A DNA stretch of 25,300 bases from Candidatus Altimarinota bacterium (GTDB lineage: Bacteria > Patescibacteriota > Gracilibacteria > UBA4473). Shown here piece by piece: positions 3,983 to 21,803 of this stretch. The position numbers and the translations under genes are program-made. Position 1 is the stretch's first letter; every line of letters starts with the position of its first letter. The stretch is from contig JBNKLH010000001.1 in NCBI GenBank assembly GCA_050292255.1, forward strand, positions 1-25,300, in the 5' to 3' direction. The notes beneath the pieces are model-generated. The model had not been told where the DNA came from. It searched no databases and worked only from the letters and a program-made list of their open reading frames with translations.

Positions 3983-4222
3983 ATGAAATTAGAACAAGAA
4001 GGTGGTGGTCCAATACACTTTTCGGAAGTATTGGGACTGGCTCTTGATGGAAACCTGGTGAGCGTGAATGCTGACTTTGGAAATGGGAATAAAATCTCGT
4101 GTTGTCTGAAAGTGGATGCAATAGATTGTTTGATTATTTATGAGAGGCAGAAGGTTGTTTCTCAGGGAAATGCTCAGTATTTATTGCAAAGAGCATTAGA
4201 TAATTTTAATAACGGTTTTTAG
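3983..4222 (+). CDS. small hypothetical protein, array paralogue 2 (79 aa)
   Basis: VSVNADFG and QGNAQYLLQRALDNFNNGF match the family pattern. Confidence 0.82.
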   Translation: MKLEQEGGGPIHFSEVLGLALDGNLVSVNADFGNGNKISCCLKVDAIDCLIIYERQKVVSQGNAQYLLQRALDNFNNGF

Positions 4223-18260: not shown

Positions 18261-18570
18261 GTGTTTGACAAAAATGTGAAATTGTATTTTATATTATTTT
18301 ATTTGTTTTGTAAACCCTTTTTGTGTTGAATTTTAAAGATAAGGAGAGCGTATTTTAGCATATACAAAAAAGTGAGCATAAAAATACTTATTATGGATAA
18401 CTCTGCATTGCGGGGCTACTCGAGGCAGTTGTATCCTCGTCATTTCATTTATATTTAGTGATTTTCCTGATTCAGAATGTTACAAATGTTACACGATGGA
18501 GTTAGTATTCAAGAGCCAAATTTTGATTGATAGAAAAATTGAAAGTGTTTTTGTAGTTTTTTCGGATAAC

Positions 18571-19012: not shown

Positions 19013-19424
19013 AATCGAGAATTTAATTGATTAATAAATAAAAAATGCTCGCAATTCTTCTGATAATTCAAAAAAATTACCAGCATTTTCCAATACTAAC
19101 CTTTCACTCAACCGTTATCTCAAAGAGCTATGTAGGAAACTTTCGAATCCCAAAGGATTAAAAATTTCACAATAAAAAAATAATACTTCTTCTTATTTTT
19201 GTCAATGATCTGTGAATTGTATTGCGATCATATTGCTGAAAGATGAATTGGAAAAGATTCAAGTAAGTTCTCATTAGTGCTCCTTCTCCATCTAGCCAAA
19301 ACAGACAAAATATCCCTTTGTAAGTAGGACTCTTTCATCGGATCCAGAAAGTGATTTGGGAATACTCAAAAAACACAAAAGCAACCGAAGTAGTTCGGTC
19401 ACAATTATGTATTAGTGCTCAAAA

Positions 19425-19567
19425 TGGCATCGCCAAGGGGAATACTCATTTCTTACATCTTTTGTTTTACCGTGGCCTGCGGCATCGAACCCTTTTGGGT
19501 TCAATTCCCACGGACTTACGTCCATACAAAAACCACCATAAACCTCAAGGGCTTATGGTGACTTTTG
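19425..19567 (-). mobile_element. 143 bp mini-insert downstream of tRNA-Glu, ending in a 19 bp copy of the tRNA 3' end
   Basis: TGGCATCGCCAAGGGGAAT occurs at both 19425-19443 and 19568-19586. The core shares sequence with the tRNA-Ser insert. Mobility is inferred. Confidence 0.65.
19528..19560 (-). terminator. terminator directly after tRNA-Glu
   Basis: Minus strand CACCATAAGCC-cttga-GGTTTATGGTG followed by GTTTTT. Confidence 0.8.
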
Positions 19568-19642
19568 TGGCATCGCCAAGGGGAATCGAACCCCTGTTAC
19601 CAGGATGAAAACCTGGCGTCCTAACCACTAGACGATGGCGAC
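19568..19642 (-). tRNA. trnE: tRNA-Glu (anticodon TTC)
   Basis: Cloverleaf with acceptor GTCGCCA/TGGCGAT, anticodon arm CCAGG-TT TTC AT-CCTGG, T arm GGTTCGATT and encoded CCA. Confidence 0.97.
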
Positions 19643-19775
19643 TCTGCGTCGTCGGTGACGGCGCATGTTCCATTTCTTTCTTCGTTTTACTACGAAAGAA
19701 ACTTCACTTGCTTTGTAACCTCCGACTTTTCCCCAAAAAATCTTCACTTCGTTCCGTTTTTTCGGGGGCCCCTTT
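19643..19775 (-). repeat. tRNA-upstream hairpin element, copy A (5' of tRNA-Glu)
   Basis: 19730-19775 (minus) matches 21386-21431 (plus) at 41/46 nt. CACCGACGACG lies 4 nt before the tRNA in both copies. Confidence 0.85.
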
Positions 19776-21507: not shown

Positions 21508-21597
21508 GGAGAGTTGCCAGAGCGGTCGAATGGGGCACCCTGCTAAGGTGTTGTATCCTCACGGGTACCGAGGGTTCGAATCCCTCACTCTCCGCCA
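21508..21597 (+). tRNA. trnS: tRNA-Ser (anticodon GCT)
   Basis: Acceptor GGAGAG/CTCTCC, anticodon arm GCACC-CT GCT AA-GGTGT, long variable arm, T arm GGGTTCGAATCCC and encoded CCA. Confidence 0.97.
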
Positions 21598-21770
21598 GCC
21601 TGCGCCAAGGCTTCGGCTGGCAGGCCAGGAGATAAACACGATGTTCTCAAAGAGAATATGGTGTTTTTCTCGTAGAGAAGGGGATTTGGACCCTTGGGTT
21701 CGCGTCGTAGCGGAGCGGAGACCACGTAAAACAAAAGACAGAAGTGAGAAGTAATCCCTCACTCTCCGCC
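21598..21770 (+). mobile_element. 174 bp mini-insert downstream of tRNA-Ser, ending in an 18 bp copy of the tRNA 3' end
   Basis: AATCCCTCACTCTCCGCC occurs at both 21579-21596 and 21753-21770. Core CCACGTAAAACAAAAGA is shared with the tRNA-Glu insert. Mobility is inferred. Confidence 0.65.
21634..21668 (+). terminator. terminator after tRNA-Ser
   Basis: AAACAC-G-ATGTTCTC-aaa-GAGAATAT-G-GTGTTT followed by TT. Confidence 0.7.
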
Positions 21771-21803
21771 TCACTTTTTATTTTTGAAACTTTCTCCATT
21801 CAC

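Follow-up and report, generated by a model that had tools for sequence, protein, structure and literature searches.

A tRNA-linked repeat of reduced design behind a tRNA-Glu gene in a Gracilibacteria-type genome

We analyzed a stretch of 25,300 nt (hereafter, the window) from a Candidatus Altimarinota bacterium (assembly GCA_050292255.1, contig JBNKLH010000001.1, positions 1 to 25,300) and focused on the 143 nt that directly follow its tRNA-Glu(UUC) gene, at 19425-19567 on the minus strand (hereafter, the Glu unit). Judged by its design, the Glu unit is a reduced tRNA-linked repeat (TLR) of the RtT type (Rfam RF00391). On balance, we consider it probable that the segment is one TLR unit, a module of the processed-RNA type placed behind a tRNA gene with no integrase involved. 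A preliminary description of the window had noted the duplicated tRNA 3' end and proposed either a tRNA-targeting mini-element or a collapsed island, with integrase crossover in the tRNA T loop as the mechanism. The parts of the unit and its flanks are as follows, in the order in which the tRNA strand is read.

19568-19642, minus strand: tRNA-Glu(UUC) gene with CCA encoded (ARAGORN; Rfam tRNA, 64.7 bits).
19568-19586, minus strand: proximal repeat R1, tRNA-Glu nt 58-76 (repeat search).
19524-19567, minus strand: spacer X, which opens the 143-nt unit and contains a terminator-like hairpin (sequence, inverted repeat).
19527-19560, minus strand: terminator-like hairpin and T run, inside spacer X (sequence, inverted repeat).
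19512-19523, minus strand: small hairpin GGAC-GTAA-GTCC directly ahead of the arm (sequence, RNA fold).
19497-19509, minus strand: arm GGGAATTGAACCC (sequence).
19493-19496, minus strand: AAAA, the loop of hairpin P2 (sequence).
19485-19492, minus strand: GGGTTCGA, the copy of the T-arm 5' half (tRNA nt ~51-58) and 3' strand of P2 (sequence).
19444-19484, minus strand: payload E, 41 nt, with the GCC-GCA-GGC hairpin, an A-rich stretch with core CCACGGTAAAACAAAAGA, and 14 nt ending GAGT (sequence).
19475-19483, minus strand: GCC-GCA-GGC hairpin (sequence).
19458-19475, minus strand: core CCACGGTAAAACAAAAGA (sequence).
19444-19457, minus strand: 14 nt ending AGT (sequence).
19425-19443, minus strand: distal repeat R2, identical to tRNA nt 58-76 and ending at CCA (repeat search; Logan contig).
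19368-19400, minus strand: second terminator-like hairpin and T run, past the unit (sequence).

The repeat search returned one exact 19-nt direct repeat (TGGCATCGCCAAGGGGAAT on the plus strand, 19425-19443 and 19568-19586, spacing 143), confirming the duplication from nt 58 that the preliminary description had reported. In the tRNA sense the repeat reads ATTCCCCTTGGCGATGCCA, corresponds to tRNA-Glu nt 58-76 and terminates precisely with CCA; 124 nt lie between the tRNA 3' end and the distal copy, and the two are identical at 19/19 positions. Three copies of the 19-mer occur in the genome, the third being the identical 3' end of the paralogous tRNA-Glu(CUC), and finding it twice within 150 nt is far above chance expectation. 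The perfect repeat argues for a recent origin or for homogenisation by the tRNA. The tRNA-Glu acceptor stem (gene at 19568-19642) opens with a G1-U72 wobble pair (GTCGCCA / TGGCGAT).

The other parts named in the preliminary description, that is, the terminator, the T-arm reverse complement with a G-T pair, GAACCC-AAAA-GGGTTC, GCC-GCA-GGC, the core and the 14 nt ending AGT, are likewise all present. Apart from a single C-to-T change, which gives the G-T pair, the arm GGGAATTGAACCC is the T arm in reverse complement. Its 5' half, GGGAAT, can pair with ATTCCC of the distal repeat (helix P1, 6 bp by sequence), and its 3' half pairs with the T-arm copy (helix P2) to form the hairpin GAACCC-AAAA-GGGTTC. 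The P2 hairpin comprises 9 bp and was recovered in both the minimum free energy (MFE) and the centroid folds. As the 5'-half copy GGGTTCGA stands directly ahead of the 41-nt middle part, the distal structure, as read from the sequence, is more than a 3'-end copy: it is a T-arm copy interrupted after nt 58. The T-arm hairpin starts 58 nt past the end of tRNA-Glu on the same strand, and the unit itself begins right after CCA.

Terminators flank the unit on both sides, a dual-terminator layout comparable to that of Escherichia coli rrnB (PMC8144298). A homologous terminator hairpin occurs after tRNA-Glu in genome G004 and, at the tRNA-Glu(CUC) locus (C18), after the repeat. The first terminator (19527-19560) is native-looking; it probably belongs to the unit, since every unit at the filled site of genome G050, described below, brings its own terminator. 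Deleting the 143 nt at tRNA-Glu would leave the tRNA followed by the second terminator. Rfam searches of the Glu unit in gathering and E-value modes returned the tRNA alone, weak snoRNA, CRISPR-repeat and RybB matches being due to chance. A hammerhead or other known ribozyme core at the junction was also considered and rejected (unsuitable linker lengths, no Rfam match).

A Logan contig from sequencing run X1 covers 19265-19591 with zero differences, spanning the distal copy and the whole insert and reaching 24 nt into the tRNA. As run X1 is probably the sample behind the genome assembly, this contig represents a second assembler, not a second sample; the duplication, which the preliminary description had allowed might be an assembly error, is no artefact of one assembler. 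This single DNA run holds the stretch, in the form of contigs, in which rare forms are invisible. The runs with a 0.07 share and the RNA run cover just the conserved tRNA part of the locus. No circular or excised form was seen in the contigs of run X1, which cannot reveal rare forms. A contig of the same run joins 19651 to 19758, omitting 106 nt just upstream of tRNA-Glu (depth 4.8; shorter side 24 nt), suggesting that the folded repeat ahead of tRNA-Glu varies in presence or absence.

TLRs were first described in 1978, according to the account in PMC8144298 (Egan and Landy 1978; Rudd 1999; both via PMC8144298). E. coli K-12 has 22 of them, all ending in 18-19 nt of the upstream tRNA or rRNA, with family members also behind 5S rRNA genes, and they are without known function except for in vitro Hfq/CsrA binding by three rrn copies (PMC8144298). 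In the literature searched, TLRs were described for E. coli and its relatives alone (PMC8144298), and a 2024 preprint mentions them in passing. In E. coli, the arrangement GGGGAAGGATGAGAAGC..AAGGTTCGA, ~68 nt, GAGT and AATCCTTCCCCCACCACCA occurs four times in the tyrT-tyrV region, where the RttR RNA, as annotated, extends from 8 nt past tyrV to precisely the CCA of the repeat. Searching the whole genome of our bacterium with the RtT model gave two matches only, both full length and under the gathering score (45 bits): the unit behind tRNA-Ser (25.8 bits, E 0.004) and that behind tRNA-Val (E 0.009).

The genome assembly (1.17 Mb, 94.7% complete, code 25) was scanned at the 32 tRNA genes found, and the same layout occurs behind at least 7 of these (Glu-UUC, Ser-GCU, Glu-CUC, Leu-GAG, Val-UAC, Gln-CUG and Thr-UGU), the preliminary description having suggested a search for further 3'-end duplications. 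Each unit runs from a spacer with a terminator-like hairpin to a ..GAACC-loop-GGTTCRA hairpin, a payload and tRNA nt 58/59-76. In each, one hairpin strand directly copies the 5' half of that tRNA's own T arm and the other is its reverse complement. Payloads fall into type A, with a common core (Glu-UUC and Ser), and type B (Glu-CUC, Leu, Val, Gln and Thr). The type-B units and a decayed copy have in common ATCATTTGCACCG ... GAGGATGCAAATGCCTCGAGTAG and variable hairpins with compensatory changes. Besides the Glu unit, the window holds two members.

21673-21771, plus strand: sibling unit behind tRNA-Ser(GCU) (gene 21508-21597), with the same payload type and with arm and repeat fitted to tRNA-Ser (sequence; Rfam RtT, 25.8 bits).
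18370-18487, minus strand: decayed type-B copy with no adjoining tRNA (motif match; model R1, 16.2 bits, E 0.008).

The preliminary description had suggested a search for the core at other tRNA genes. Outside the window, one further copy of the type-A core was found, by another tRNA end, as a loose end in the same metagenome (at 19459). In the 42 other genomes of the family, the core gave chance-level matches only, none at a tRNA: with up to 2 mismatches, the 43 family genomes yielded 8 matches versus ~12 for the reversed control. The core is thus not a conserved recognition site, and the type-A payload is confined to this lineage.

We searched more widely with a pattern drawn from the Val, Gln and E. 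coli units (GGATGAGAACC, 2-8 nt, GGTTCGA, 55-85 nt, ATCC). It matched at least 120 stretches in the species-genome collection, against an estimated chance expectation of ~15. For 80 loci the surroundings were fetched, giving 103 hairpins and 69 parsed units (hereafter, the wide set; its counts hold among the matches listed). A tRNA gene lies upstream on the same strand for 91 of the 103 hairpins, mostly at 16-95 nt with a few farther. The 69 parsed units show the same internal design as tyrT. The hosts, among the matches listed, belong to more than 10 bacterial phyla, including Proteobacteria, Verrucomicrobiota, Gemmatimonadota, Bacteroidota, Chlorobiota, Lentisphaerota, Kiritimatiellota, Marinimicrobia, Poribacteria and Patescibacteria with Gracilibacteria. 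Three matches in GC-rich coding sequence look like chance, and three others lie by degraded tRNA ends. In the DPANN archaeon GW2011_AR19 (L110) the T-arm hairpin pattern occurs 45 nt behind tRNA-Ser; a copy of the tRNA end after this hairpin was not found with the settings used.

Within the family of the window, a type-B covariance model detected copies in 24 of 43 genomes, at 0-14 copies per ~1-Mb genome, and copy number differs within genera (e.g., 14, 5 and 0 in one genus). Most of the fetched type-B matches (24/28) are located 5-125 nt behind a tRNA on the same strand, representing at least 10 amino-acid specificities, and their repeats range from 17/17 identical down to truncated. Other genera of the family have other payloads or none behind tRNA-Glu. 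Orthologous retention was observed for tRNA-Lys copies in Serratia, Yersinia and Pantoea, and for tRNA-Tyr copies in several Gracilibacteria genera.

Several features of the payloads indicate an RNA. In the wide set, 53 of 66 payloads fold better in the sense than in the antisense orientation (p 4e-8). They are strongly structured (mean z -2.9), with 37% G and 11% T on the tRNA-sense strand and with GNRA-type and GGA loops. RNAalifold analysis of 26 units together with one E. coli copy recovered P1, P2 and the payload hairpins with compensatory pairs. This covariation was seen in the type-B copies and the wide set, not in the Glu copy; together with the sense-strand preference, it is indicative of an RNA. 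Between arm and repeat of the same unit, 54% of positions 63-72 are paired, versus 31% for mismatched partners. Pairing falls to background by nt 69-72, and a helix of 8-11 bp is its general extent. A mimic of the acceptor/T minihelix reaching nt 72 was considered and rejected, the pairing being at background already there.

Two further observations concern the wide-set payloads. The first payload hairpin, CAAAATCGCC(G/A)GGAGCGATTTTG, is near-identical behind tRNA-Gln and tRNA-Tyr in different gammaproteobacterial genera (L034, L063, L087 and others), and GGA, the CsrA-type motif, is present in many payload loops.

The gain or loss of units was revealed by two genomes of one genus (g20). In G019, tRNA-Glu(UUC)..CCA is followed directly by CATAGTGCACTAAGAGTGCA, that is, an empty site. 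In its congener G050, 374 nt separate the CCA from the homologous ACTTGTGCACTAAGAGTGCA, and these comprise two units, both complete with terminator-like hairpin, T-arm hairpin, payload and final repeat. The flanking genes match on either side, and the filled site is bounded by the 18-19-nt repeat. This empty/filled pair shows that units come or go precisely at the repeat; the direction of change is not readable from it, because recombination between repeats would restore an empty site. In close strains, no empty site at the very locus of the window was found: the nearest neighbour by the flippase is 83% identical and its 1.8-kb contig, which ends 52 nt after tRNA-Ser, is without tRNA-Glu, and the others have at most 65% identity and altered gene order. 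The preliminary description had stated that its mini-element would be refuted by absence of the core from other loci together with the lack of an empty site in relatives. Of these two, the first was found and the second was not, as an empty site does exist.

To what the repeat owes its sequence is indicated by nine wide-set loci at which the tRNA gene lacks CCA. The copy is without CCA in 9/9, the gene's own three flank bases are repeated exactly in 5/9, and in 2/9 (L037 and L070) the copy keeps matching the gene flank for at least 13 bases more. In ~14 terminal units, identity runs through the whole spacer. Across loci, the duplication has a constant left edge (nt 58/59) and a variable right edge, its length ranging from 18 to ~86 nt. 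Because the CCA-less loci copy the gene's own flank, the source of the repeat is DNA or the primary transcript rather than mature tRNA, the CCA evidence coming from these nine loci. With that origin, the retroviral-primer analogy suggested by the 18-19-nt length falls away. All 32 tRNA genes found in the assembly of the window's genome encode CCA.

The genome was also searched for enzymes that could act on such units. There is one tyrosine recombinase match (PF00589) in 1.17 Mb, of the XerC/XerD type; an integrase beyond the Xer type was not found, an absence left unproven by an assembly that is 94.7% complete. The sole reverse transcriptase found is a group II intron reverse transcriptase/maturase (C127:743-2218, L027; TIGR04416, 392 bits). 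Neither CsrA nor Hfq was found in the 94.7%-complete assembly. Guide-RNA and transposon ideas (TnpB, IS605, IS110 bridge RNA) were rejected, as the assembly has no IS110 match and one sub-threshold match to a TnpB-type zinc ribbon (18.6 bits).

Several other sequences lie beside the tRNA genes. A GC-rich hairpin, GCCTGCGCCAAGGCTTCGGCTGGCAGGC, is found right after the CCA of tRNA-Ser (21598-21630), with a near copy after the CCA of the Leu unit's repeat (C41, ~1725-1759), and may be a further small module attaching to ..CCA ends. At C18:1334-1400 (L021), the terminator after the repeat of the Glu-CUC unit is 86% identical to the one directly after tRNA-Glu(UUC), and the bases past it faintly resemble the start of the window's Glu unit; the C18 terminator may be the remnant of an older unit pushed outwards by the newer type-B unit, as we infer from this likeness. 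C99 carries a partial second copy of tRNA-Pro, 42-100 nt downstream of tRNA-Pro(UGG) (4023-4099, minus strand), in which the D arm and anticodon arm are retained, the T arm is replaced and the 5' acceptor strand is degraded. It is a pseudogene of another kind than the TLR units.

The processed-RNA reading builds on the anatomy, the family membership by design, the gain or loss at the repeat, the DNA-level origin of the repeat and the class-level covariation. In this reading, the repeat would be copied from the gene or its primary transcript, and the unit would be gained and lost as DNA at the repeat. Upon passage of the first terminator, the unit would be read as part of the tRNA transcript, and its RNA is predicted to fold as a three-way junction. 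As the unit ends in the tRNA's own 3' end, it could be trimmed like a tRNA and thus be cut out by the tRNA-trimming enzymes. The payload would be the variable part, possibly protein-binding, with a lineage-specific payload placed precisely at the T-loop split behind nt 58. If the unit acts at all, such an RNA step, with reading through the first terminator and tRNA-like trimming, would be the most likely route, by analogy with the E. coli RttR annotation and PMC8144298.

A number of results weigh against this reading. The Glu unit is a weak member, given its 41-nt payload with one hairpin, a P1 of merely 6 bp that is missing from the MFE fold, and the lack of an Rfam match, and it may be a minimal or decaying copy. 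It has no match to RF00391 up to E 10, the model having been built from enterobacterial copies only. In the wide set, a strand test showed no excess of G-U over A-C pairs in P1, leaving this helix unproven as RNA, and within the window's own genome the arms show hardly any preference for the tRNA they belong to. We infer transcription and processing in this organism from E. coli, the RNA runs matching the tRNA part alone. The wide copy-number swings between sister genomes fit a selfish repeat better than a needed RNA, and how arm, hairpin and repeat come to match a new tRNA is left unaccounted for.

The strongest alternative, possible though unlikely in our judgement, is a non-autonomous mobile element that targets the tRNA T loop and 3' end, duplicates its target from nt 58/59 and is moved in trans. 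Its target-complementary arm and hairpin would then be a built-in guide, and the enzyme would not be encoded in the unit. An element of this type would explain the empty/filled pair bounded by the repeat, the 0-14 copies per genome that vary within genera, the presence of one payload type at tRNAs of at least 10 amino-acid specificities, with a separate repeat for each, the constant left edge (nt 58/59) and variable right edge (18 to ~86 nt) of the duplication, and repeats that grade from perfect to decayed like ageing insertions. However, there is no candidate enzyme, as the 94.7%-complete assembly shows nothing beyond Xer and a single group II intron reverse transcriptase, and the units have neither terminal inverted repeats nor a duplication of constant length. 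Circular or excised forms did not appear in the contigs, which are unable to show rare ones, and loss via recombination at the 19-nt repeat accounts for empty sites equally well. Furthermore, the compensatory changes and the orthologous retention at tRNA-Lys and tRNA-Tyr point to purifying selection on an RNA.

Somewhat less likely still, TLRs could be a very widespread, unrecognised class of self-fitting mobile modules, with arm and hairpin complementary to the T arm and with the Glu unit as a minimal copy. The RNA, or its DNA, would be inserted at the tRNA 3' end with duplication from nt 58/59 onwards, and the machinery would be either housekeeping (replication, Xer, tRNA processing and reverse transcriptase) or a yet-unidentified enzyme.

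We consider it improbable that the units are functionless by-products of replication template switching at the palindromic T arm, kept as harmless and homogenised by the tRNA. A unit minus its payload is an inverted and then a direct T-arm copy, the pattern expected of two strand switches, and the copying of genomic flank by the repeat and the decay series among repeats are in line with this. Yet template switching does not account for a payload at a fixed position, for its strand bias and compensatory pairs, or for the conservation of the junction words GGATGAGAACC, GGTTCGA and the GAGT ahead of the repeat from E. coli to Gracilibacteria. Payload-less units, with the two T-arm halves contiguous, were absent from ~100 loci, but the search pattern demanded a 55-85-nt gap.

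Very improbable is an attL/attR scar left by a tyrosine-integrase element that recombined within the T loop and has since lost all its genes. Integrases that target tRNA genes create a direct repeat extending from T loop to tRNA end, and such a repeat is confirmed at tRNA-Glu. We nevertheless reject this origin, because the T-arm copy is split, the payload is shared and folded, and no integrase beyond the Xer type was found in the 94.7%-complete assembly. The 41-nt payload parts GGGTTCGA from ATTCCCC, so that there is no contiguous half-site or hybrid core: it lies between the 5' half of the T loop and the 3' copy, unlike a crossover product. At least 7 sites carry units in a 1.17-Mb assembly that shows only a single, Xer-type recombinase, and one payload family is common to different tRNAs. 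The same internal design is found in more than 10 phyla and at E. coli tyrT, 5S rRNA members exist as well (PMC8144298), and the class payloads show covariation of the RNA type. Thus, what survives of the preliminary proposal is a tRNA-targeting mini-element in the sense of gene-less inserts at tRNA 3' ends, at least 7 in this genome; the collapsed island and the integrase crossover in the T loop do not.

Least probable of all is a retro-copy of the mature tRNA 3' end (18-19 nt), with copying halted by a block at nt 58 in the manner of retroviral primer-binding sites, for although the copy begins at nt 58/59, ends exactly at CCA in the window's genome and coexists there with a group II intron reverse transcriptase, the copies without CCA that follow the gene flank in 9/9 CCA-less loci and the identity often extending into the trailer contradict it.

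The TLR class reaches ~1-Mb genomes in which CsrA and Hfq were not found, and the function proposed for the E. coli rrn copies therefore cannot be general. New here are a clean empty/filled pair at tRNA-Glu in one sister genus, a DNA or primary-transcript source of the repeat, and covarying, sense-biased payloads, and the processed RNA module and the mobile unit are now testable alternatives. For annotation, duplicated tRNA ends of the TLR kind should not count as integration scars or island borders.

Among known systems, the closest are the E. coli TLRs, including the 178-bp tyrT-tyrV repeats. As in these, the Glu unit is downstream of a tRNA gene on the same strand, and its final 18-19 nt are identical to the upstream tRNA 3' end (here 19/19). 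It shares with tyrT an arm set against the copied T-stem strand, the GAACC/GGTTCGA hairpin, a hairpin payload, GAGT and the repeat, and with rrnB the position between two terminator-like hairpins (PMC8144298). In contrast to the E. coli TLRs, its payload has 41 nt (versus ~68) with one hairpin and an A-rich stretch, its P1 has 6 bp (versus 10), it is a single unit rather than an array, and its host is of the Gracilibacteria type (code 25), with CsrA and Hfq not found. Compared with the type-B units, the Glu unit has the same order of terminator, T-arm hairpin, payload after nt 58 and repeat, whereas the type-B payload is ~90 nt long with a conserved CATTTGCA/TGCAAATG helix and CCTCGAGTAG, and that of Glu-UUC is a short type A.

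RrA, RrB and RrF are small RNAs between dual rrn terminators, for which the 3'-end copy was proposed as a processing signal (PMC8144298). They and the Glu unit are both TLR members whose last part copies the 3' end of the stable RNA upstream, and RrA/RrB/RrF are transcribed by read-through of a first terminator, as would be the Glu unit. Their partner is 5S rRNA and they bind both Hfq and CsrA in vitro, whereas the partner of the Glu unit is a tRNA and neither protein gene was found in its genome. Integrative elements that target tRNA genes (P4-type and similar) and the gene-less derivatives of such elements (CIMEs) resemble the Glu unit in the direct repeat from the tRNA T loop to its end. 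The Glu unit differs from them in having no integrase, a length of 143 nt and a T-arm copy split by a payload, and the TLR design differs in being conserved across phyla as a folded, RNA-like module. Miniature inverted-repeat transposable element (MITE)-like elements differ in that the inverted parts of the units copy the target instead of being ends common to all copies, and the duplication of the units ranges from 18 to ~86 nt.

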